64,000 nucleotides of DNA from a virus (IMGVR_UViG_3300021255_000027:3239-67238); one strand, 5' to 3'. Positions 6,033-53,184 are shown, numbered from the stretch's first letter. Made by a program: numbers and translations. The notes: generated from the letters alone by a model not told the origin.

Positions 6033-6326
6033 CTATTCGGAGTGCCTCTTCTTCAATAGTTTAGGGGATACATTTTTGATGAAGGGAAGGAATCTATAAT
6101 AGACTCTCCGCTTGGGTTTGTCCAGAACCCTCCTGCTGATAATGGTTCGGACATGGTTCTGTGGGATCTCGCAGAACTTCGAGAAGTCCTCCACAGTACC
6201 GATGACGTTGAGATTCTTCTGAAGCATTTCCGATACCGACTCGATCTCCTCCATGGTACAGAGATCATTATTGATCTTGTACTTGTAGTAATCAAGAGTC
6301 TGGTTAATCAATTCCTTAGCGTCCAC
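6033..6326 (-). CDS. small putative DNA-binding protein
   Basis: Likely GTG start overlapping the upstream gene; HTH-like VEDFSKFCEIPQNHVRTIISRR. Confidence 0.55.
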   Translation of the reverse strand: MDAKELINQTLDYYKYKINNDLCTMEEIESVSEMLQKNLNVIGTVEDFSKFCEIPQNHVRTIISRRVLDKPKRRVYYRFLPFIKNVSPKLLKKRHSE

Positions 6327-6723
6327 GACTGAAGAAATGCTTATGGGCCATAACGAGGAACGACAATACTGCAACCAGCAGAACAACGTAAATGGCTATG
6401 AGTTCGTATTGGGAGAATTGCAGTATGTAAGAGTCTACGAATGACTCAATGTTCGATGAAGTGGGGATCAGACATGCTGCTTTGTGCCATTTGCAAAGCC
6501 TGAATAATCTGGATGCGACTAGAAGGAATCCAGTAGTGATTGGGGAGACAAGGCAAACAGAATCTATCCAGTTCACAAATGGCTCAAAGGAGCATATATT
6601 CACGATGATGTATGCGGCATAGACCAGAAGATAGACAAATGGGAACATCTGTACTATCCTCGTAGCCTTGCGCAGTACAAAGACAAGATTACTTAGTGCG
6701 CCTCTTGGGTCTTGGCTGTCCAT
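6316..6723 (-). CDS. membrane protein (3-4 TM)
   Basis: Several hydrophobic segments. Confidence 0.7.
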   Translation of the reverse strand: MDSQDPRGALSNLVFVLRKATRIVQMFPFVYLLVYAAYIIVNICSFEPFVNWIDSVCLVSPITTGFLLVASRLFRLCKWHKAACLIPTSSNIESFVDSYILQFSQYELIAIYVVLLVAVLSFLVMAHKHFFSRGR

Positions 6724-6841
6724 TTGACAAGGTCTTTACATGAGGGCCAATCTGCGCCCTCATTACACGGGTGGGGGAAGGGCGGCTCACTCCGGAACGT
6801 CCTCCCGACCTGGGTCTCTTTGAAGTTGATCTGTTATTCAT
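6689..6841 (-). CDS. small basic R/K/S/P-rich peptide (50 aa)
   Basis: Hand translation MNNRSTSKRPRSGGRSGVSRPSPTRVMRAQIGPHVKTLSNGQPRPKRRTK; start coupled to the upstream stop. Confidence 0.5.
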   Translation of the reverse strand: MNNRSTSKRPRSGGRSGVSRPSPTRVMRAQIGPHVKTLSNGQPRPKRRTK

Positions 6842-7323
6842 TAGAATCTATAGGTTATACCACCAGTAACTCCTCCGCCTCCATAGACTTTGCCGGATGG
6901 AGTGACAAGGAGTGACGGCCCGATAGCCACCCCAAAACTCCATTTCTTCGGAGGAGTCGTAACCGTATTGGTGATTGTTATCTCGGTTGTCTTGTTGTAA
7001 ATAAGAAGGGAATCCAGGCTCGGATGCCAGCCAGAAAGTACAGCTCGATACACGCTATCTTCCTCATAGACTTTCCTCTCAATAGGCACATTCACCAGGA
7101 CGGTGTCGTGTTCGATTGTAGTGAAGTAAGTGCGGATGGTATCGTGTATGTAAGAATGGACAAAAACGGGCTTCTCACGCACGATTGTATCAGTGACCAC
7201 ACAAGTGTCCACCTTCGTGATAACTTGCGTTTCTGGGGGCTTTCTGAACACCTTGTGGCCAAGTATCAATCCGACTGCAAAGCCGGATGCGATAATCAGA
7301 ATGTCTTTGATCAACGACCTCAT
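6841..7323 (-). CDS. putative spanin-like lysis protein
   Basis: N-terminal TM, DT-rich region, C-terminal beta strands ending YRF; follows the endolysin. Confidence 0.6.
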   Translation of the reverse strand: MRSLIKDILIIASGFAVGLILGHKVFRKPPETQVITKVDTCVVTDTIVREKPVFVHSYIHDTIRTYFTTIEHDTVLVNVPIERKVYEEDSVYRAVLSGWHPSLDSLLIYNKTTEITITNTVTTPPKKWSFGVAIGPSLLVTPSGKVYGGGGVTGGITYRF

Positions 7324-7796
7324 TGGATAGTTATACTTAAAGCCTCACCTCGGTCATCCGCTTCCTTGAGAATTGCATACACCTTGTTGAAACACATCGT
7401 GGATTTAGTCACCATGCCCTTCCTGTCGTTCATCCCCGTAAGAATGCACCCACTACTGTCAGGGTTGGCGTAGTTCCCCACATGTATAAGGACAGCCTCA
7501 AAGCCAGGCACTCCCAACAACCTTGGAAGATAACCATTGTAAGGCTTTGCCCATGAACGGTTCTTGTACTTCGGAGACTGAACCATTAAAGTAATGGCGT
7601 AAGTGCCACGAGGTATCGCAGTCTCATTGGGTATCTTATACTTCTTGATTTGTGCCAGCGACCAGGTTTTCTTCAACCCTCTGTCTACATCTTCCATGGT
7701 GTCACAGATATACACCATCTGGCCATTCTTCTCATAGTAGAGATGGCCAACGGTGTATTCCTTGCCCTTGAAGAATCTATCGAGCAGCAGCTTCAT
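7320..7796 (-). CDS. DUF5675-family putative endolysin
   Basis: YTVGHLY, TAIPRGTY, LIHVGN...SSGCILTG motifs. Confidence 0.8.
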   Translation of the reverse strand: MKLLLDRFFKGKEYTVGHLYYEKNGQMVYICDTMEDVDRGLKKTWSLAQIKKYKIPNETAIPRGTYAITLMVQSPKYKNRSWAKPYNGYLPRLLGVPGFEAVLIHVGNYANPDSSGCILTGMNDRKGMVTKSTMCFNKVYAILKEADDRGEALSITIQ

Positions 7797-8170
7797 TTCT
7801 TACTCCTCTTCTCGTCCCTGATCTGTTTGCTCGCCTTGATGCCGAGAGCCTTTGTGATGGTCGTTATCTGCATCTGGAGATCTGATATCTGCTTCTGATA
7901 AGCAAGCTCCATCTGCCGTTTCTCATCCCTTAAGGTCTTCACCTCGGTCTCAAGTTCGGCTATCCTGGCATTCTGGGCAGCAATCCTCTCGTCCTGATGC
8001 TGCAACAGAGGCTTGTAGAAGTCCTCCATTGCCTTGCGCATGTTGTCAATTTCATCGGACTTGACCTCTGCCGTTGCCTTCCGTTTACCGATTCGCCAGT
8101 TAATGATCTGAGTGAGGCCACCTGCTCCGAGAGCGGCAGCCACATAGCCAATTGCCTCCCCCCAATCCAT
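7793..8170 (-). CDS. putative holin-like protein (TM plus coiled coil)
   Basis: N-terminal hydrophobic helix; directly upstream of the endolysin. Confidence 0.55.
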   Translation of the reverse strand: MDWGEAIGYVAAALGAGGLTQIINWRIGKRKATAEVKSDEIDNMRKAMEDFYKPLLQHQDERIAAQNARIAELETEVKTLRDEKRQMELAYQKQISDLQMQITTITKALGIKASKQIRDEKRSKK

Positions 8171-20366: not shown

Positions 20367-22103
20367 TTAGGCCCTTACGACTCCCTGGAACTTGACCCAG
20401 GTATTGAGGTCGGTGTCCCACTCAACGATGTCAGCCTTCTTGAAGCCGGCAGTTGCATCGTCAGCGGTGAGGTAGTACTTGAGGAGCTTCGCAGCGGAGG
20501 TGAGAGCAGATCCGGTAGGAAGAGCGGACACGCTGGTGAAGGAAGCAACGATACCACCAAGGTTGGCCTGGGTGAGAGCAGCGTTGGCAGGAAGGACGAG
20601 CATGCTGTTGAATCCGTTGAGAGCAACGCAGTCATACTTGCAGAGGTTGTACTCCTTGGCCTCACGAGCCTCGGCAGTCTTGCTCATGTCACGGGTGGTG
20701 GTCTTCTTATTGACCATGTACGGACGGGTAGCATGACGGAGGTCAACAACGATCATAGCCTCTTCGTAGCCGATATCGTTCAGGGTAGGATCGTAGACGA
20801 ATTCGAATGAACCGAAGTTGTCACGATAGTTGCGAACCTTGATACCGTAGTCATTGACTTCGACCCTGCCGACATCCTTGTACTTATCAGCACTGTTGAC
20901 GAGCTTGATGAGCCTCTGCATAGCCTTCTTTCCGCAGAAGACGGTAGCCTCATCGGACTGGCTGTTATCGGTGAACTGGAGGGTGGACATCACGAGGAGG
21001 TCATCATCGGTGAGAGCATTGCCGGAGAGGGTGTAGAGCATATTGAGCTGACGGAGAATACCGTTCTCAAAGTACACGGACTCACGGTTTCCAGTCTCAG
21101 GGACAAAGACATCAACACGAGCCTTAGTTCCGTTCCAGTGGGAGCGGGCGCACTCACGCTTGAAGTTGTACTCGGCATTGGCGAGGATCTTCTGCTTGGT
21201 GTGAGGGACTTTCTTGATCTGCTCCTCAAGGGCATCGGTGATAACGCAGGTGACGATCTTCTTCTGGAGGAAGACATCGAACTTCTCAGGCAGATAGGTC
21301 TCGGAAGCAACATGCATCTGGGACTCTGCGCAAGCGGTAGCCATGCTCTTGAACTCAGCGTACTGAGGGATGGAAACGGTGGTAGGAGTGGTGGCATCAA
21401 TAGGAGGGTTGATGACCTTGAACTGAACCAGATCGCTTGAATCCTTGTGGTCAAGCACGAAGAGCATCAGTTCGCCATCGGCAACCTCATTGCCACTCTC
21501 ATCCTTCTTGTAACCTGCAACACCCTTCACAACGACAGTAGAGAACTCGGTGAGGCACTCAGGGTTGTCAAAGTTGGCAACGGCCATCTTGAGGACGTTA
21601 TTGGTCTTGTTGTAAGGAGTGGTGGAGGCAGCAGCAGGAGAGATGGTAACTGCGCTACCATTCCAGACTGCATCCAGATCGGTGGAGCCAGTCCTCCAAT
21701 GTCCGTGGACAGGGCTGTTCACCTTGACCGGACGGCACTGACGGGCGATGTAGGTCTCAATAGGGAAGGCGAAAGGACGGAACTCGTCAACATCCTTGTC
21801 ATAGTCTTCGGCCTCAAGACCGGCATCACGGACATCGGTAGCGGTAGCGGCCTTGCCCTGGAGCTGGGTCTTGCCACCCTGCTCGTCAGTCTGAAGAGCC
21901 TCATCTGCAGGACGGCCACCAGGGTTGGTGGTTGCGTCATAGGTGTCCATGTTCTCTGAAGGGTTGGCGTCAGGAGACAACTCAACGGGGTCAACAACTG
22001 CCATAGCGAAACCGAGATCTGCACCCAGCAGAGCTGCGGCAACCACAAGCAGCGATGACAGGACGCTCATCTTGTGGGTCTTAAGAAAATTATAAATTCC
22101 CAT
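20367..22103 (-). CDS. major capsid protein (with N-terminal hydrophobic segment)
   Basis: Follows scaffold; strong codon bias; downstream terminator; LQKKIVTCVIT...FKRECARSHWNG resembles HK97-fold spine. Confidence 0.75.
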   Translation of the reverse strand: MGIYNFLKTHKMSVLSSLLVVAAALLGADLGFAMAVVDPVELSPDANPSENMDTYDATTNPGGRPADEALQTDEQGGKTQLQGKAATATDVRDAGLEAEDYDKDVDEFRPFAFPIETYIARQCRPVKVNSPVHGHWRTGSTDLDAVWNGSAVTISPAAASTTPYNKTNNVLKMAVANFDNPECLTEFSTVVVKGVAGYKKDESGNEVADGELMLFVLDHKDSSDLVQFKVINPPIDATTPTTVSIPQYAEFKSMATACAESQMHVASETYLPEKFDVFLQKKIVTCVITDALEEQIKKVPHTKQKILANAEYNFKRECARSHWNGTKARVDVFVPETGNRESVYFENGILRQLNMLYTLSGNALTDDDLLVMSTLQFTDNSQSDEATVFCGKKAMQRLIKLVNSADKYKDVGRVEVNDYGIKVRNYRDNFGSFEFVYDPTLNDIGYEEAMIVVDLRHATRPYMVNKKTTTRDMSKTAEAREAKEYNLCKYDCVALNGFNSMLVLPANAALTQANLGGIVASFTSVSALPTGSALTSAAKLLKYYLTADDATAGFKKADIVEWDTDLNTWVKFQGVVRA

Positions 22104-22129
22104 ATCGATAAGATTTTATGAGTTTTCGA

Positions 22130-22897
22130 TTAGCGTATTCCAGCCCACGGACTCGTGGTTTCCGTTCTGGGGGCTTTCTCTCTTACCCTTGCTCCCTGTC
22201 CTCCGGGGATTGCGGGAGGCATGGCGTTAGAGGTGCTACGATCACGTCTGGTGACAGCGATCTTGGCGTTGCGCCCGCTCACTTCACCTTCCTGACGGGC
22301 AAGAGCCACGTCCGAGTCGTGATTAATTGCATTGAGTGCGAGGTCGAAGTCTTCGGTGGAATACTTGTTCACCATCCCGTTGAAGGCAATGGACAGGAGC
22401 CTCAGCATGACATCACGCTTCTGCTCAAGGGACAGACCCTTTGAGTTGCCCCACTCCTCCAAGTCTGACAGCGACTTGTTCCAGTTCTCTTCGGCCTCCT
22501 GATTGAGGGCATCGTTGGCGGATTTCCTTTCCCTCCAAGAGTCCAACTGACTCTTGAACTGGGACTGGCTCTCCTCACTGATGCCGAGGTCATCACCGAA
22601 TGTCTCCACCAGGGCTGTCCTGGGATCTCCGGTTTCGACCCATCTCTGAATGAACTCTGCGCTACTCGGATCGGTGAGCAACAGTTCCTTCAGCCTGCTG
22701 TCCTTCTCGTCATAAGCGGTCTGCCTGGTCGAGTAGTCCTGCAGCATCTCGTCTATTGCTTCATCCAGATCGGAAACCCCTTCCTGCGGCTCGGTTGCAT
22801 CCAGGTCAGCGAAGGTTCGATCAGGGAAACGCTCCCTTGCACGGGCAAGAAGGTCGGCTCGTGGGGAGGTTCTGTTCATTTCTTCTGAATTAGCCAT
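22130..22897 (-). CDS. putative scaffolding protein
   Basis: Acidic, helical, directly upstream of capsid. Confidence 0.65.
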   Translation of the reverse strand: MANSEEMNRTSPRADLLARARERFPDRTFADLDATEPQEGVSDLDEAIDEMLQDYSTRQTAYDEKDSRLKELLLTDPSSAEFIQRWVETGDPRTALVETFGDDLGISEESQSQFKSQLDSWRERKSANDALNQEAEENWNKSLSDLEEWGNSKGLSLEQKRDVMLRLLSIAFNGMVNKYSTEDFDLALNAINHDSDVALARQEGEVSGRNAKIAVTRRDRSTSNAMPPAIPGGQGARVREKAPRTETTSPWAGIR

Positions 22898-22950
22898 TGA
22901 TGAATCGTAATTAGTTTGGGTCAAAAATAACTTTGGCATCGCTCGCATAA

Positions 22951-22966
22951 GGTCTATCTTTCCCCA
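22951..22966 (-). promoter_or_regulatory. late-operon motif TGGGGAAAGATAGACC copy 1
   Basis: Identical 16-mer at four sites; 54 nt from scaffold ATG. Confidence 0.75.
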
Positions 22967-23016
22967 TTTAACTAAACATTGTGCAAGAACTTGCGCAAGA
23001 ATAGGTTAAATCTTTT

Positions 23017-23024
23017 TACCTTTG
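23017..23024 (+). promoter_or_regulatory. Bacteroidota -7 promoter element
   Basis: TACCTTTG matches TAnnTTTG upstream of the 23039 ATG. Confidence 0.6.
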
Positions 23025-23038
23025 CAATAAAGGAGAGA

Positions 23039-23449
23039 ATGAGAGATACCGAACTGATTAGGGCGAAAGAGCAAGCCTTGTATGCCGTCTACAAGAGAGG
23101 ACTGGAGGAGGGTCGCTTCAAATCTTTCCGGGAAGCAGGGGAATGGACGAGGAAACAGCCCGCCCCCAGGTATTTCATTGACTCTCGCACGGCTTCATTG
23201 CTATTGGGAAAGATTCACAACCAGTCTTTCCTGATGGGGCTTCACCCCGCTTCACGGAGACTAATCCTCCATCTCGACTCTAAATACAAGGAATACCTTC
23301 ACGAACATCCTAAAAGCACGTTATCCAGAGAAAGGATAATGGAACTGCTCGTGGAAGAACCCGCCCCCGAATTCTACATAACCGGGGAAGGAGCGAGGAA
23401 GATAATACGCAAGGTGATAAAAGGAATCAGGGAGAAGTGGGGACAATGA
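23039..23449 (+). CDS. hypothetical basic protein, possible transcription regulator
   Basis: Internal repeat PAPRYFID/PAPEFYIT each followed by a helix. Confidence 0.65.
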   Translation: MRDTELIRAKEQALYAVYKRGLEEGRFKSFREAGEWTRKQPAPRYFIDSRTASLLLGKIHNQSFLMGLHPASRRLILHLDSKYKEYLHEHPKSTLSRERIMELLVEEPAPEFYITGEGARKIIRKVIKGIREKWGQ

Positions 23450-23940
23450 GATACGTTCTGATCATACTCATGATAGCGGTGTATGCCATCTTCGGCATAC
23501 CGACATGGTTGGAGATGGGGGAGTCCCCTTATCTTGCCAGGGCATTGGCCTATTCTTTCTTCCACGCTTCCCTCTGGCATCTGGCCGTGAACTCCCTTGC
23601 CACATGGACTCTTTACAGAAATGCAAGTTTCTGCAAGGCTTGCAAGGAATTGCTTGTCGCTTTCCTCATCGCAGTGGCCGTCTACCCTCTCTCGTTCCGT
23701 CCCGTAATCGGATTCTCAAACGTACTCTATGCCACCATAGGCATGCGTACACCACCGCTATCCTCACCATGGTGGAGGAAGTCTCCCGTGATAGTCTTCC
23801 TTGCCGTGACCGTTGCCATGTTTTTCATACCGAGGTTCAGTGCCACGACACACGTAGCGGCATTCGCTCTGGGAATAGGATACGCCTATCTGCGGAGATT
23901 CCATAAATCAATCATGAACGATGCAGGGCGCTATCTATAA
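23446..23940 (+). CDS. rhomboid-family intramembrane serine protease
   Basis: FFHASLWHLAVN, IGFSNV (GxS catalytic Ser), TTHVAAFALG (catalytic His); multi-TM. Confidence 0.75.
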   Translation: MRYVLIILMIAVYAIFGIPTWLEMGESPYLARALAYSFFHASLWHLAVNSLATWTLYRNASFCKACKELLVAFLIAVAVYPLSFRPVIGFSNVLYATIGMRTPPLSSPWWRKSPVIVFLAVTVAMFFIPRFSATTHVAAFALGIGYAYLRRFHKSIMNDAGRYL

Positions 23941-26023
23941 ACAGATCATCGAGGAGAATGAAGCCAGGCTTCATCGGTTGCGGGCAGAGTATGATCCCGT
24001 GACGGGTGAGGGTCTTGCCGAGCTGCTTGGTGAGGAGAGGGTGAAACTTGAGATATCGGACTTCTCCATCCCCGTCCAATGGGTTCCGAAGGAGATGATG
24101 AAGAATCCTCTTATCAAGGAGGTGGCCAAAGCGGGGAGCATCGAGACTTATATTGAAAAACATAAATGGAAATACAGTACTCCGACCCATCTTGACATAG
24201 AAAGACGCATCAGGCGAATCCGCCATAAGCACGACTTCTGTCATTGGGCATTCTTCTGTATCTGGATCAAGCACAAGAAACTCAAAAGAAGAGTCCGTTT
24301 CAAGCTGAACCTCCCCCAGCTCATTGTGCTTTCCAAATGCGAGGAACTGCGAAGGGCCGGAGAGCCTATTGCGTTGATCATCCTCAAGGCCAGACAGTGG
24401 GGAGGATCGACCTTCTGCTTCTTCTACCAGGTCTGGCTGCAGTTCAAGTGGAACGAGTTCCATTCCTTCGCCATTGCAGCGCACACCTCCTCGGCATCCG
24501 AGACCATCCTCAATATGCTCAAGCGATCCATCAAGGATTATCCGGCATGGGATCTCGGACTTGAGGACGGTACGGAACTGCGGCTCGCCCCTGCCGACAC
24601 ATCCGGCCATGCCTTCACCCTCAAGGATCAGGATAACAAGCAGGTGTTGGAAGGGTTCATCTATGTGGGTACTGCCGAGAAACCCGACACCCTCCGTTCA
24701 AAGGATATCTCCGGTGCGCATTACTCCGAGGTCGGAGTCTGGCCTGACACTCCCGGCAAGCAGGCAGAGGATATCATTGCAGACATCCAGGGAGGTCTCC
24801 TTGAGGACACGGAGACGATGGAGGTCATGGAGTCCACGGCCAAGTCTTCCGATGATTACTTCCATGCGGTCTGGGAGTCATGTGTCGGTGGGGAAGGTGG
24901 CTATGTCCCCGTGTTCATCTCCTTCATCCAGATCGAGAACGATGTCAGGGAGATAAAGGACATGAAAGCCTTCGTGTCCTGGCTCTATGAACACAAGGAT
25001 GAGGAGCGTCCCAACGGCAAGTGGAGGGACAGTGGCAAGTACTACTGGTGGTTGTGGGAGCTTGGTGCTACCCTCGAACACATCAACTGGTATCGTTATC
25101 GCAGGCTCAAGCTCTCCTTCGCCAAGATGTGCAACGAAGCCCCCGCCACTCCGGAGCAGGCGTTCATCACTGCAGGACAGAAGGTCTTCGACCCGTTTGA
25201 GGTGGCGAGGAAGAGGGAGAAGTGCAGGGAGCCGGTGATGGTCGGTGACCTGATAAGCGATGCCCATGAAGGAGCGGAGGTGCTGGACAACATCCGTTTC
25301 ATCCCCAACTCATCCGGTGCGCTCAAGGTCTGGGAAGAACCGGACGATTCTCCCATCTCCAACAGATATGTCGTTGCAGTGGATATCGGTGGTCCGAATG
25401 ACACCTCCGACTGGTCTTCTGTCAGAGTCCTCGACAGGCTCATGATGATGCCGGACTTCGGCCTTGCGGGGAAGCCGAATGTGGTAGCGGAGATGCATTA
25501 CCACATCGACCATGACAAGCTGGCCTACGATGCCTTGAGGCTTGCGGAATGGTACAACCATGCACTGCTGGTCATAGAGTCCAACACCCTTGAGACCCAT
25601 AAGAAAGACCACAATGCCGATGAGGATGGCTTCGAGTACATCCTTGACATCATTGCAGACCTCTATGACAATCTGTACATGCGCCAGACCAAGGAGGAGG
25701 ATGTCAAGGAGGGAGTGATAGGGAAGTGGGGATTCCACACCAATGCACTCACCAAGCCGAAGATCATTGACAACATGCGCACCTGTCTGAGGGATGACCT
25801 CTGGGATGAGCCAAGCACCCTCTGTCTAGATGAGATGTCCATGTACGTGGATGAGAAAGGACAGTATACCGCACCTCCGGGCAAGCATGATGATGTCCTC
25901 ATGGCCACGGCCATCCTGCTCTGGGTGGGATTCAAGGAGATGCCCATGCCCGCTTGGATAAGGCAGAGGGAGAAGAGCAGAGTGGAAGTGGAAGGGGACA
26001 GGATGGGACTGACCAACATTTAA
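23921..26023 (+). CDS. terL: terminase large subunit
   Basis: LKARQWGGST Walker A, MEST motif, VAVDIGG and HDDVLMA nuclease motifs. Confidence 0.92.
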   Translation: MQGAIYKQIIEENEARLHRLRAEYDPVTGEGLAELLGEERVKLEISDFSIPVQWVPKEMMKNPLIKEVAKAGSIETYIEKHKWKYSTPTHLDIERRIRRIRHKHDFCHWAFFCIWIKHKKLKRRVRFKLNLPQLIVLSKCEELRRAGEPIALIILKARQWGGSTFCFFYQVWLQFKWNEFHSFAIAAHTSSASETILNMLKRSIKDYPAWDLGLEDGTELRLAPADTSGHAFTLKDQDNKQVLEGFIYVGTAEKPDTLRSKDISGAHYSEVGVWPDTPGKQAEDIIADIQGGLLEDTETMEVMESTAKSSDDYFHAVWESCVGGEGGYVPVFISFIQIENDVREIKDMKAFVSWLYEHKDEERPNGKWRDSGKYYWWLWELGATLEHINWYRYRRLKLSFAKMCNEAPATPEQAFITAGQKVFDPFEVARKREKCREPVMVGDLISDAHEGAEVLDNIRFIPNSSGALKVWEEPDDSPISNRYVVAVDIGGPNDTSDWSSVRVLDRLMMMPDFGLAGKPNVVAEMHYHIDHDKLAYDALRLAEWYNHALLVIESNTLETHKKDHNADEDGFEYILDIIADLYDNLYMRQTKEEDVKEGVIGKWGFHTNALTKPKIIDNMRTCLRDDLWDEPSTLCLDEMSMYVDEKGQYTAPPGKHDDVLMATAILLWVGFKEMPMPAWIRQREKSRVEVEGDRMGLTNI

Positions 26024-26462: not shown

Positions 26463-28520
26463 CTATTCAGGCCGATACATGTTCATCGACCTTACTACTG
26501 CCGCTTCGTCTCGTGACAAACCGGAGTCAGTCTGTACGGGTCTTCCTTGAACGACATCCTGCGCTCCCTGCGGAGGGGCTGTAGACGGCATGGCCGCTCC
26601 TTGCATCGCCTCGGCCTCGGCCTGCCTTGCCTGCCTACCCTGCAGGATCTTGTCCGCATACGGCACATCGGCAATCTCAAGGTATTCCTCGAAGGTGATG
26701 AGTCCGTTCAGCAGGAACTCCTTGGCATCCTGGTTGATGACGGCACGGAACACGGGAGTGTCTGCGCTTTCCTTTATCTTGATGTCATACTCAAGGTCAC
26801 CTACCTCATTGAGATTGAGGTTGGCGTTGTCGTATGCTCCATCCAGTCTTCCGGCAATGCTTGTGAACCTTGCAGTGTCATAGAACATTGCAATATTCTT
26901 CATCTTCTTGTAGAGGATGGACTCCTTGAACTTGCGGAAGTCTTCCATCAGTCCGGCAATAGGAGTGGAAGCATTCGTCACCATCTGTGCATAGAGCGCA
27001 CCGGACGTTGATGCCCCAGGGGCTTTACCCTGCATCGCTCCATTGACCGGAGTACCACTCTCCATCAGACGGGAATAGGTGGCGATGAGGCTGCTCACAT
27101 CGAAGTTCTGTGCAGCACCGAAGAAGACCTTCGGCATCAGTCCTTCCTGTCCCGGTTTCATGTCGATGTACACCATGTCATCGATGGAAGTCCAGCTCTT
27201 TGCGAAATCCTCGAAACTCACGTCATCGGGGACGATGGCCTTCGGGACAACGGTGACACCCTTCGCCTGTGAACGGAGGAGCCAGTCGTGAAGCACTATC
27301 GCACGGTTGATGGCGATATTGTGGTCGATGGCATCGTTCATGTAGCCCGTGAGCTTGCCGTCCACGAAGGGGAATGCGCAGAAGGAGAAAGGATGGCTTC
27401 TGTCTGCATAGGGTGACTCACCCTCCCAGAGGATAGTCCCATCGGGTGCAAGGAACCGACAATACCAGTAGGTGTCAATGAAGAATCCGTTCCTCTCGTC
27501 CTCCTCATTGCCATACCCGTCACCAACGATATAAGGGACATCGGAGTCAGACCACCCGGCACTTGCCGCCAGTTTCTTCCTCCTTTCGTTCTCCATCTTT
27601 ATCTGCTTGCGATAGGCACGGTCATCGGCATCAATGATCTCTTCCGTTCCGGCATTCATGTCATGAAGACGGATTCTAGGCTTCGTCTCCCTTGTCCAGA
27701 CCTCGAAGACCCTGCACTTGGTAGAGTCGGTAGGACGGAGGAAGACCATGTCATCCTCATCATGCCTGTCGGTAATCTCATCTATATCCTCTTCTTTGAA
27801 GGTGGCGGACTGGTCGGCATAGATGTCTCGGAGGGTTTCATAGTCTCCCATCTTATGTGCGAACATGGCGCAGACTTCCTCGAAGCTCTTGTCAAAGAAC
27901 TGCCCCACGAGGGTGACATCCCAGAAGCGGGGATCGACTGCCTCGCTCTCGAAGAATATCTGGTTGGGGTTGCAGTAGGTAGTCCATGAGTCGAGCCTTC
28001 TGCTGGGGCCGGATGTGTCATCATAAGCCTCATGAGCAACGGCTAGTCCTCCGATGCAGACATCCTTGAGGAACTTGATCTCCAATTCCGTGAGGAGGTT
28101 CTTCTCGCAGTTTGCCTGCAGAGCCACGGTCATTATCTCTCCGTACTGCTGCTCATCCCTATCGATGGCATGGCAGACGGGTTCGCTCTTGTCCTTGATC
28201 ATGACACCCACGATGGTGTCCACCTTGTTCTTGATTTGGTTGGTCTGGATGACTACATTGCCCTGCTGCATCAGATACTCACGATAGGTCATCGCCTGAC
28301 CGTTCACCGTGATCGTATCCGCCCACTGGTCACCATAGGCGAACCGGACACCCCTTGCCCTCTGCTGGCGGAACTCATCCAGGTTGCCCCAGACCGTCTC
28401 GCACCTCTGGAGCAGGGCTACGTCCTTGTCCTTGAAGTTGAGCTTGGCTTGCCTCGCCTTCACGGAATTCATCTCGGTGAGGGTACTGCCTCGCTTTATG
28501 AGTCTGGTTGCCTTAAACAT
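26463..28520 (-). CDS. portal protein (P22/podovirus-like)
   Basis: GDQW, NQIKNKVDTIVG, HPFSFCAFPF, QGKAPGASTSG motifs; size. Confidence 0.85.
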   Translation of the reverse strand: MFKATRLIKRGSTLTEMNSVKARQAKLNFKDKDVALLQRCETVWGNLDEFRQQRARGVRFAYGDQWADTITVNGQAMTYREYLMQQGNVVIQTNQIKNKVDTIVGVMIKDKSEPVCHAIDRDEQQYGEIMTVALQANCEKNLLTELEIKFLKDVCIGGLAVAHEAYDDTSGPSRRLDSWTTYCNPNQIFFESEAVDPRFWDVTLVGQFFDKSFEEVCAMFAHKMGDYETLRDIYADQSATFKEEDIDEITDRHDEDDMVFLRPTDSTKCRVFEVWTRETKPRIRLHDMNAGTEEIIDADDRAYRKQIKMENERRKKLAASAGWSDSDVPYIVGDGYGNEEDERNGFFIDTYWYCRFLAPDGTILWEGESPYADRSHPFSFCAFPFVDGKLTGYMNDAIDHNIAINRAIVLHDWLLRSQAKGVTVVPKAIVPDDVSFEDFAKSWTSIDDMVYIDMKPGQEGLMPKVFFGAAQNFDVSSLIATYSRLMESGTPVNGAMQGKAPGASTSGALYAQMVTNASTPIAGLMEDFRKFKESILYKKMKNIAMFYDTARFTSIAGRLDGAYDNANLNLNEVGDLEYDIKIKESADTPVFRAVINQDAKEFLLNGLITFEEYLEIADVPYADKILQGRQARQAEAEAMQGAAMPSTAPPQGAQDVVQGRPVQTDSGLSRDEAAVVRSMNMYRPE

Positions 28521-28577
28521 AAGTGACGAATTAATATACACTACGCAACGAAAATAGGGATGCTTTCGCACCCCTAT

Positions 28578-52080: not shown

Positions 52081-52096
52081 GGTCTATCTTTCCCCA
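52081..52096 (-). promoter_or_regulatory. late-operon motif copy 4 (overlaps integrase stop)
   Basis: Identical 16-mer; 56 nt from ATG at 52025. Confidence 0.75.
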
Positions 52097-53184
52097 ATGT
52101 CGGGTATCAGGTCAACGGTCTTGCGCTTGTTCTCGTCCACTATCTTGGCGTATATCTGTGTTGTCTTTACGTTGGTATGTCCCAGGAGGGAGGAGACGGT
52201 GTAGATGTCAGCACCATAGGTCAGTAGGAGAGTGGCATAGGTATGCCTTGCACAGTGGAAGGATATGTGCTTATCGATCCCCGCCTTTTCTATCCAGTGG
52301 TTGAGGTACTCTCCGATGGTGCTTCTAGCCGGGAGCGTGAAGACCTTACCCTGCTTACGTTTCGAGTCCGGCAGTTGTGCGATTGCATTGGCAGAGAGTG
52401 GGATGTAGACAAGTTTCTTCGTCTTTATCTGCCTGGACTCCACCTGCAAGCCTTTGCCGTTGTCCTTTATCATCTCCCATGTAAGAGCCTCGATGTCGCT
52501 TATGCGGAGGCCGGTGAAACAAGAGAAGAGGAACGCCTTCTCGGTCATCCTGTTCCTGCAGTGGATGGTCATCAGCTTCTTTATCTCTTCGAGGGTGAGG
52601 TACTCCCTGCTTGTGTCCGGCTTCTTGGGTCTGTCGGTGGTGTCGATCCGTGAGAAAGGGTTCTCATTGATCCTACCTGCACGGTATGCCCTGTTTATCA
52701 CGGTGCGGAGGATGGAGAAATAGACGAACACCGTCCCCTGCGACAGTCCTTCTTTCCCCATGAAGCGGCAGAATCCGAGGATATAGTCCTTGTCCAGAGT
52801 CAGCAGGGTCACCTTCTTCCCATACTTCTTCATCCACTTCGCTATCTTGTCGAGGGCTTCGGGATAGAAAGGTTTCCCCGCCTGCGTGTATTCTTCCTTC
52901 TGCTCGTTTATGAAGTTTCCCAAGGTTATGTCCTCATGCCTTGCCGTCCTTATCCCAGACCTCCCTTCCTGAAGCAGGAGGATCTTCTTCGCTTTCATTC
53001 CCTCGGCCAGCTTCATAGTCTCCTGGTTCTTGATCTTATCCAGTCTGGTATGTTCGGGGACTAGATACATCTTTAGGAATTCCCTCGTTCTTATCCCGTT
53101 CATGGAATAGTCGAGATATAGGGATTGGCCTCCATCTTTCATTGCTCTCTGGCGGAGCGTTACCAGTTCCTTGCTATGGTTCAT
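52084..53184 (-). CDS. int: tyrosine integrase (Bacteroides type)
   Basis: SLYLDY arm domain; TGLRISD, FHCARHTYA, LGHTNVKTTQIYAK. Confidence 0.95.
   Translation of the reverse strand: MNHSKELVTLRQRAMKDGGQSLYLDYSMNGIRTREFLKMYLVPEHTRLDKIKNQETMKLAEGMKAKKILLLQEGRSGIRTARHEDITLGNFINEQKEEYTQAGKPFYPEALDKIAKWMKKYGKKVTLLTLDKDYILGFCRFMGKEGLSQGTVFVYFSILRTVINRAYRAGRINENPFSRIDTTDRPKKPDTSREYLTLEEIKKLMTIHCRNRMTEKAFLFSCFTGLRISDIEALTWEMIKDNGKGLQVESRQIKTKKLVYIPLSANAIAQLPDSKRKQGKVFTLPARSTIGEYLNHWIEKAGIDKHISFHCARHTYATLLLTYGADIYTVSSLLGHTNVKTTQIYAKIVDENKRKTVDLIPDIGER

Follow-up and report, generated by a model that had tools for sequence, protein, structure and literature searches.

In a 64,000-base stretch of viral DNA (IMGVR_UViG_3300021255_000027:3239-67238; hereafter the window, taken from a 67,238-base virus record), the gene for an HK97-fold major capsid protein that begins with a signal-peptide-like membrane leader is accompanied by the gene for a rhomboid intramembrane serine protease (Table 1). 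The pairing of capsid leader and rhomboid is conserved and, on the partial support that comparison among relatives lends it, plausible as a maturation system. We propose that the rhomboid removes the membrane leader before the shell assembles, a reading to which we assign a probability of roughly 0.4. The window belongs to a gut Bacteroidales phage, and its integrase identifies that phage as temperate. In the literature searched, supplements aside, we found no description of a leader-bearing capsid protein or of the function of a phage rhomboid.

The 578-residue product of the capsid gene matches the Pfam family SU10_MCP (PF17236; E 4.1e-11, 43.4 bits against a cut-off of 24.1), and its AlphaFold2 model, with a mean predicted local distance difference test score (pLDDT) of 72, consists of a spine helix and an HK97-type body. 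A Foldseek search with this model returned the capsid of Vibrio phage VP1 first (E 7.5e-19), followed by the capsids of crAss001, P1, SU10 and HK97 (to 1e-6), and a profile of the protein family (alignment A3) matched the VP1 capsid chain 9in6_M at E 2.1e-16. Portal, terminase and scaffold-like genes surround the capsid gene and give it the context of a head module. The identification of the 578-residue product as an HK97-fold major capsid protein is secure. Model confidence drops below a pLDDT of 50 at residues 27-50, 80-93 and 95-108, and these stretches suggest a layout of leader, acidic flexible linker and capsid fold; the linker, whose first 20 residues carry a net charge of -5, differs in both length and sequence among the members of alignments A1 and A3. 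The capsid family is large, with 267 homologues at E <= 0.001 and 1,210 cluster representatives in a further search. Neither the capsid protein nor the rhomboid was assigned to a PHROGs family at E <= 0.001, and neither gave a tblastn match among 50,697 phage records.

The capsid open reading frame (ORF) starts with MGIYNFLKTHKMSVLSSLLVVAAALLGADLGFAMAVV. A basic n-region (K8, H10 and K11) is followed by 16 hydrophobic residues (S13-A28), and the leader closes with D29-L-G-F-A-M-A35. Hydropathy on the Kyte-Doolittle scale, averaged over the 17 residues from residue 12 onward, is 2.23; residues 2-26 are predicted to be helical in the AlphaFold2 model, and the capsid gene is the only structural gene of the window to encode such a hydrophobic stretch. 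The leader is present in all 16 aligned homologues down to 45% identity, with residues 2-11 conserved, and codons 12-33 differ from those of each of five close relatives (L001, L002, L003, L006 and L012) by five or six synonymous substitutions and by no non-synonymous one. By this codon evidence the leader is evidently translated and under strong purifying selection, and its presence in 16 of 16 homologues together with the exclusively synonymous changes argues that it is not a chance feature. The conserved residues 2-11 and the synonymous-only helix codons also rule out a start codon downstream of the helix, so that the true capsid start lies upstream of it, as had been supposed. In a deep alignment of 16 sequences, which spans lineages with as little as 17-20% identity to the window protein, only 18 columns are invariant; L19 and G27 of the leader are among them, and M34 and A35 are at least 90% conserved. 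Ordinary signal peptides are far less conserved than this. An M-[A/G] pair ends the leader in 38 of 43 rhomboid-bearing clusters, the Met being absent there in the remaining five. In a clade resembling the cultured phage BS-TP4, a second conserved motif, (S/N)-L-P-D-A-G-(K/V)-T, stands about 5 residues past the x-M-A (L015 2702-4144, minus strand; L047, L051, L114, L124 and others), where it is possibly a further recognition element.

The constancy of the M-[A/G] pair admits another explanation, namely that the Met-Ala at the leader end is a second translation start, so that the leader would be missing from most of the capsid protein made, the long form being a minor membrane isoform. Two database representatives (P0284 and P0351) are indeed called from exactly that Met. 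The five clusters without a Met at this position speak against such a start, as does the shifting of the Met within a second phage group (described below); moreover, A/T-rich DNA precedes the first ATG of the capsid gene, whereas the internal Met lies in G+C-rich coding sequence. The strong protein-level selection on the helix indicates that the long form matters, and we consider a second start highly unlikely.

The rhomboid gene begins 1,334 nt from the capsid gene, start to start (22103 to 23437), and encodes 167 residues from a GTG or 164 residues from an ATG nine bases further on. Its product matches Pfam PF01694 (MEROPS S54) with 29 bits against a cut-off of 22.6 (E 1.4e-6), and the same family was assigned to 120 of 120 homologues among the matches listed. 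The GxS motif is G92-F-S94, with Ser94 encoded at 23716-23718 and His139 at 23851-23853; His43, His48 and Asn52 lie within 23563-23592. In 21 phage rhomboids down to 15% identity, Y39, H43, H48, N52, P89, G92, S94, G102, H139 and G146 are invariant. The predicted structure (pLDDT 92.9; predicted template-modelling score 0.88) has a six-helix GlpG-like core, and every one of the top 32 chains listed by Foldseek is a GlpG of E. coli or H. influenzae (TM-scores 0.55-0.69; 0.6-0.69 for E. coli GlpG). Sequence similarity to GlpG is marginal: a phage-rhomboid profile reached GlpG structures at E 7e-4, with its Ser and His motifs in register with GLSG and HIA. The aligned positions coincide with what we take to be the catalytic Ser, the catalytic His and the helix-2 His/His/Asn of GlpG. 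The phage enzyme and GlpG of E. coli and H. influenzae (PF01694; PDB 2ic8, 2nr9 and 6pjr) thus have in common the six-helix core, the GxS Ser, the helix-6 His and the helix-2 residues; unlike GlpG, the phage rhomboid is a minimal core without a cytoplasmic domain and is encoded by a virus, within a terminase operon. By every hallmark it looks like a catalytically intact enzyme. Its topology, read by eye from the charged loops, puts the N- and C-termini inside and the active site on the periplasmic side. It diverges faster than the capsid protein, with 55-62% identity where the capsid proteins are 85-95% identical. An assignment to rhombosortase (NCBIfam TIGR03902) was rejected, the score being 16.6 bits against a cut-off of 84. 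The original prediction had named a putative HK97-fold capsid protein with a basic stretch and a hydrophobic helix at its N-terminus, and a rhomboid with intact GxS and His about 1.3 kb away that overlaps terL; the database and structure matches, the hydropathy and predicted helix, the gene coordinates and the invariance of the catalytic residues all bear this description out.

The rhomboid gene is bound tightly to its neighbours. The terL start lies 20 nt before the rhomboid stop codon, so that the last 20 nt of the rhomboid gene overlap terL, and on the other side the rhomboid ATG overlaps the stop of a gene for a 156-residue protein as ATGA. These overlaps on both flanks indicate that the 156-residue gene, the rhomboid gene and terL form one tightly coupled late operon, from which the scaffold-like and capsid genes diverge.

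Rhomboid and leader also occur together in relatives. Among close relatives, 13 viral loci were found through the capsid protein and 12 of these include upstream DNA; the rhomboid is in the same place in 12 of 12. A rhomboid-seeded scan of viral contigs, in which the best 80 of 167 confirmed relatives were analysed, gave 59 loci with a capsid gene and 49 with its N-terminus, and the leader is present in all 49. The 21 loci without a capsid gene include a second phage group (genomes of 59-86 kb), in which the rhomboid and its 156-residue neighbour lie beside lysis genes; here the capsid gene is found elsewhere in the record, about 11 kb from the rhomboid in the two records for which the distance was worked out, and carries the leader in 5 of 5 records. 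Three of three cultured temperate Bacteroides phages, BF1-TP2, BS-TP4 and BKO1-TP3, also have this module together with a capsid protein that carries the leader. Their capsid proteins are too diverged for tblastn from the window protein, and the phages were reached only through terL (39% identity between the TerL of the window and its homologue in these phages). When a search was instead seeded with aligned capsid proteins of greater divergence, it yielded 80 viral loci; 50 of their records were scanned, and a rhomboid was found at E <= 0.01 in 38 of them, over the Pfam cut-off in 31. Completeness is 90% or more in 7 of these records, and 6 of the 7 have a rhomboid. Every rhomboid-bearing relative with a readable capsid N-terminus carries the predicted short leader, and the co-occurrence of rhomboid and transmembrane-leader capsid that had been proposed holds across a very large, deeply diverged phage clade, even where the genes are about 11 kb apart.

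Annotation of the cultured phages is uneven. GenBank already lists two of their three rhomboids under that name, the rhomboid of BKO1-TP3 (gp50) is annotated 'glycoside hydrolase', and terL is called 'tail spike protein' in all three (L014 9034-11061; L015 6001-8097; L016 5965-8079). The available portion of the paper on these phages mentions neither a rhomboid nor mass spectrometry (PMC12694917).

An alternative account of the rhomboid is that it serves the relationship between prophage and host, for example in superinfection exclusion or membrane remodelling, and that its link to the leader is inherited synteny. The temperate lifestyle of the phage and the fast divergence of the rhomboid relative to the capsid protein would fit such a role. 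Yet late structural genes overlap the rhomboid gene at either end, the catalytic residues of its product do not vary, and its pairing with the leader was kept after the genes had moved about 11 kb apart; we regard this account as very unlikely.

In the mechanism that we favour, the capsid protein would be made as a precursor in which a membrane leader resembling a signal peptide (residues 1-35) and a disordered, acidic linker reaching to about residue 110 precede the HK97-fold body. The leader would bring the new capsid protein to the cytoplasmic membrane and keep it there, unable to assemble, and the phage rhomboid, produced from the same late operon as the terminase, would cut close to, or exactly at, the conserved x-M-A where the helix ends on the outer side. 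The freed subunits would then join scaffold and portal for assembly in the cytoplasm; cutting would come before the shell closes, and finished proheads would not be detached by it. More speculatively, the linker might enter the translocon as a hairpin and slide back after the cut, leaving the capsid body in the cytoplasm. Membrane insertion, cleavage, the identity of the protease and cytoplasmic retention of the capsid body are steps that we infer. That a very large clade of gut and rumen Bacteroidales phages sends an HK97-fold shell protein to the membrane and uses a virus-encoded intramembrane protease as its head-maturation enzyme is accordingly put forward as a tentative and somewhat doubtful generalization.

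Parts of this scheme have counterparts in known systems. The delta domain of HK97 gp5 is removed by the prohead protease gp4. In phage T4, the N-terminal region of gp23 is likewise cleaved during maturation, as described in the accessible part of PMC9958956. The leader resembles these segments (gp23/gp21 and gp5/gp4) in being an N-terminal capsid segment that is absent from related mature-length proteins; unlike those soluble propeptides, which are cut by a soluble protease packaged in the prohead, it is of membrane type, and the only phage protease candidate is intramembrane. The same excerpt provides a precedent for a membrane step in the assembly of tailed-phage heads, since the T4 portal initiator gp20, with its chaperone gp40, sits on the inner membrane and the prohead comes free once the maturation cleavages have taken place (PMC9958956). 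In T4, however, the portal rather than the shell protein is on the membrane, the capsid protein has no transmembrane leader, and no intramembrane protease takes part in release. Among rhomboids, AarA of Providencia stuartii trims an N-terminal extension of TatA, of which only the cut form builds large homo-oligomers (according to the available part of PMC3712462). The step proposed here would be similar, with a rhomboid trimming an N-terminal extension before assembly at a site, F-A-M-A↓V-V in the window, that fits the rhomboid rule there but in only 18 of 38 clusters. TatA-type substrates have their N-terminus outside and stay in the membrane (PMC2941825, section 12), whereas the leader is predicted to have its N-terminus inside and the product would be soluble and cytoplasmic. 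Finally, the leader shares with Sec signal peptides, the substrates of signal peptidase I, a basic n-region, a core of about 16 residues, a c-region with a helix-breaking Gly and polar residues, and small residues at -1 and -3; it differs from them in belonging to a protein that works in the cytoplasm, in being conserved where the rest of the protein falls below 20% identity, and in its nearly constant Met at -2. Of these systems, GlpG comes closest as an enzyme, AarA with TatA in the logic of the step, and the T4 and HK97 examples in phage biology; none of them pairs an intramembrane protease with a shell protein that carries a membrane leader.

A number of observations weigh against leader removal by the rhomboid, or narrow the form it could take. 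The first concerns geometry. The N-terminal regions of HK97-fold proteins point inward, often mediating assembly, and anchoring of closed proheads through inward N-termini seems geometrically implausible. The earlier proposal that proheads are anchored at the membrane and then released by the protease is therefore unlikely, and any cut should come before the shell closes.

The second concerns phages that manage without the enzyme. No rhomboid was found in 12 of the 50 capsid-seeded records, several of the 12 being small fragments. L109 and L110, by contrast, are genuine phages that have this head module, and in them the 156-residue homologue abuts terL with nothing in the gap; a phage-specific rhomboid profile gave no match at E <= 1 in any of five rhomboid-less records, one of them 93% complete. 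The capsid proteins of rhomboid-less phages still start with a membrane-type leader; the protease is thus not indispensable for a leader-bearing capsid. In a FastTree capsid tree of 104 clusters (rough clustering by shared 4-mers, midpoint root, leader left out of the alignment), the 43 rhomboid-bearing clusters form the deep backbone, and the rhomboid-less capsids fall into one clade of 59 clusters (support 99) and one pair. The rhomboid label needs only two changes on this tree. As judged from it, the co-occurrence is largely phylogenetic, with only about two independent losses, and the comparative evidence for coupling, although real, rests on about two independent events.

The third concerns polarity. 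By the positive-inside rule, a positively charged N-flank stays inside. The N-flank of the leader is net positive in 43 of 43 rhomboid-bearing clusters, and the 20 residues past the helix are net negative in 42 of them, a pattern that would put the N-terminus inside and the helix end in the periplasm, as in a Sec signal peptide. By these charges the capsid body would end up outside, as if the protein were exported. Packaging of DNA is impossible for a capsid body in the periplasm, which makes the polarity of the leader awkward for the mechanism that we favour. The substrates that define rhomboid specificity have their N-terminus outside (PMC2941825, section 12), and the leader, going by the charge rule only, departs from this N-out single-pass shape.

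The cut site is a further difficulty. Rhomboids are described as preferring a small P1, a large hydrophobic P4 and a hydrophobic P2' residue, with Asp, Pro and Trp mostly deleterious (PMC2941825, section 9). Of the 38 clusters with an x-M-[A/G] site, 31 have Ala and 7 have Gly at P1, and 28 have a large hydrophobic residue at P4; P3 (position -3) is one of A, C, S, V, I and L in 25 clusters and Met in 11. On the other side of the bond, Asp or Glu occupies P1' in 16 clusters and P2' in 8; 17 clusters have Ala at P2', and 9 have Asp, Glu or Pro there. The combined P4/P1/P2' rule holds in only 18 of the 38 rhomboid-bearing clusters, and each of the 15 aligned relatives has the sequence FAMAV(D/E)P, in which P2' is Asp or Glu. 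The original prediction that F-A-M-A↓V-V suits a rhomboid is therefore correct for the window, which fits only because of an extra Val, and fails for these 15 relatives.

The same A-x-A site suits host signal peptidase I no less well, whose rule calls for small residues at -1 and -3, and position -1 is Ala or Gly in 38 of 38 clusters. By the general features of Sec signal peptides (positive n-region, hydrophobic core, small -1 and -3 residues; assessed without a dedicated predictor), the leader would qualify as one. Since the rhomboid and signal peptidase both cut at the periplasmic face, either enzyme is hard to square with a cytoplasmic capsid body. A serious rival explanation, though one we consider on balance unlikely, is that the leader is taken off by signal peptidase I or some other protease of the host, and that the rhomboid acts otherwise in the same membrane, where it might clear leftover leader peptides, time lysis by way of lysis proteins or cut a host protein. 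The textbook make-up of the leader (basic n-region, 16-residue h-region, A-M-A) accords with this, as do the leader-bearing capsids of phages and chromosomal cassettes that have no phage rhomboid and the position of the rhomboid beside lysis genes in the second phage group; free leader peptides would also have the N-in orientation predicted from the charges. Alternative substrates are at hand in the window. Its lysis cassette (about 6.3-8.9 kb) encodes several membrane proteins, and two of them, the DUF6808 protein and one further lysis protein (Table 1), combine N-out polarity with a helix rich in small residues, by eye the classical shape of a rhomboid substrate. As a constant partner of the rhomboid the DUF6808 protein was rejected: it occurs in only 6 of 18 rhomboid-bearing and in none of 5 rhomboid-less records and so does not track the protease, although fast-evolving lysis proteins in general might still be among its substrates. 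What host cleavage leaves unexplained is why the leader is so much more conserved than an ordinary signal peptide, why Met stands at -2 in 38 of 43 clusters, and why the rhomboid is never seen without a short leader; cleavage by signal peptidase, moreover, normally means export of the body, which is incompatible with a capsid.

The capsid tree holds evidence for the favoured mechanism as well. The leader is missing in none of the 43 rhomboid-bearing clusters, and all 22 purely leaderless clusters lie within the rhomboid-less clade. With a rhomboid, the hydrophobic span of the leader has a median of 22 residues (range 17-51) and the polar tail a median of 49; without one, the median span is 70 residues in 7 phage clusters and 43 in 27 chromosomal clusters, and the tail is 31. 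The spans differ by rhomboid status at p = 3e-11 (Mann-Whitney, kinship ignored), having been measured on stop-to-stop frames that may lengthen some of them. In this comparison the shape of the predicted leader tracks the protease. Leaderless relatives start about where leader-bearing capsids would be cut, just before the conserved N-arm, which suggests that the leader is a removable module, and the existence of close relatives without it indicates that the capsid body works on its own. Such leaderless forms were seen only in chromosomal mini-cassettes; a search seeded with 10 leaderless representatives returned 80 viral loci, nearly all with a hydrophobic leader in the open frame.

The leaderless relatives also bear on the idea that the leader is never cleaved and perhaps not inserted into a membrane, acting instead as a helix inside the procapsid that contacts scaffold, portal or cargo, with the rhomboid as an unrelated accessory gene. 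The inward orientation and assembly role of HK97-fold N-termini would suit such a helix, and rhomboids of other phages do lie among accessory genes, as with gp93 of Stenotrophomonas phage DLP3, whose role is given as unknown in the part of the source available. Set against this are the start of leaderless close relatives just before the N-arm, the universal signal-peptide polarity of the leader, and the position of the rhomboid inside the packaging operon, kept since the base of the clade. We consider an uncleaved internal helix improbable.

The chromosomal mini-cassettes form a population of their own. Found in metagenome-assembled genomes of Bacteroidales (Muribaculaceae, Prevotellaceae and Porphyromonadaceae) in at least 516 confirmed stretches, of which 80 loci were analysed, they consist of 2-4 genes. 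Besides an SU10-type capsid gene (Pfam E about 1e-50) there are genes for a small acidic protein, for a product of roughly 170 residues and for a truncated P22-like portal (430-472 residues), and housekeeping genes (LptF/G, an aminotransferase and a PpiD-like gene) directly adjoin the cassette. Examples on genome contigs are L221 9983-12965, L230 9271-13254 and L239 9383-11263. No rhomboid lies within 10 kb in any of the 80 loci, and no terminase is present among the ORFs of the four loci read. The mini-cassette looks like a domesticated capsid remnant or an encapsulin-like element. Close relatives within the chromosomal clade mix leaderless and leader-bearing capsids (L239, L246, L251, L262, L277 and L290, with the capsid-like gene at about 9.6-11.3 kb, or at 1.3-2.9 kb in L262). 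Several leaders of this clade end, by eye, in a lipobox-like L-x-[G/S]-C, which, if functional, would mean export and lipidation of an HK97-fold protein.

As to other proteases, no Pfam family of prohead proteases, whether of the HK97 gp4, T4 gp21 or S49/ClpP type (S78, S77 and S49), was detected (E <= 0.001) among 9 + 53 translations from the window or, at the same threshold, in the 5 ORFs of the 3.4 kb of the record outside it, very distant homologues remaining conceivable. The original statement that no HK97- or S49-type prohead protease is recognisable is thereby extended to the rest of the record. Many short-tailed phages lack a prohead protease, so that its absence here need not be a gap to fill.

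The remaining genes of the head module are listed in Table 1. The 272-residue protein directly upstream of the capsid gene keeps its place in all 12 relatives whose loci include upstream DNA and, to judge from its position and acidic composition, is presumably the scaffold. The 156-residue protein always adjoins the rhomboid upstream, even in the phage group in which terL and the capsid gene are elsewhere. Its placement was read in the window and in L063 and L091 (about 6260-6950). It has no named match in Pfam, NCBIfam or PHROGs, and a protein atlas gave only unnamed phage clusters. On the portal side of the module, a single ORF of 5,407 residues encodes a giant polyvalent protein, homologues of which, 3,633 to 5,553 residues long, occur in the cultured Bacteroides phages, one of them annotated as DarB-like.

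Table 1. Features of the window, with coordinates counted from its first base.
Feature	Coordinates	Strand	Evidence or remarks
Lysis protein, Pfam DUF6808	6841-7323	-	One N-terminal Gly/Ala/Ser-rich helix, positive charges after it
Lysis protein	7793-8170	-	One N-terminal Gly/Ala/Ser-rich helix, positive charges after it
Major capsid protein, 578 residues	20367..22103	-	Pfam SU10_MCP
HK97-fold body, residues 111-578 and stop codon	20367..21773	-	Pfam SU10_MCP, Foldseek, A3 profile
Acidic low-complexity linker, residues 36 to about 110	21774..21998	-	Low pLDDT, variable alignments
Capsid leader, residues 1-35	21999..22103	-	Sequence, hydropathy, conservation
Scaffold-like protein, 272 residues, directly upstream of the capsid gene	22130..22948	-	phrog_22323 (function unknown), E 9.8e-32
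156-residue protein, upstream neighbour of the rhomboid	22979..23449	+	phrog_27246, E 1.8e-9
Rhomboid intramembrane serine protease	23437..23940 (GTG 23437), or from ATG 23446	+	Pfam PF01694
Large terminase subunit, terL	23921..26023	+	phrog_2, terminase large subunit, E 3.7e-14
Portal, P22-like, completing the head module	26463..28571	-	Pfam P22_portal, E 2.3e-25; phrog_156, E 1.4e-45
Giant polyvalent protein, 5,407 residues	31375-47598	-	ART-PolyVal, LPD23 and MORN_2 domains
Integrase	52084-53184		Marks the phage as temperate

If the leader is indeed removed by the rhomboid, the enzyme would be the first intramembrane protease in the morphogenesis of a tailed phage, and its substrate would be one of very few natural substrates of a bacterial-type rhomboid. 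The two would form a natural rhomboid-substrate pair with an N-in leader, which would widen the substrate rules. Even if host signal peptidase makes the cut, a Sec-type leader on a cytoplasmic capsid protein needs explaining. The phage group is abundant in gut and rumen samples, and with three Bacteroides-infecting relatives in culture the question is directly testable (PMC12694917). In the accepted view, heads of tailed phages are matured by soluble proteases packaged in the prohead or by none; a membrane leader and a rhomboid would add to this a control step at the membrane.

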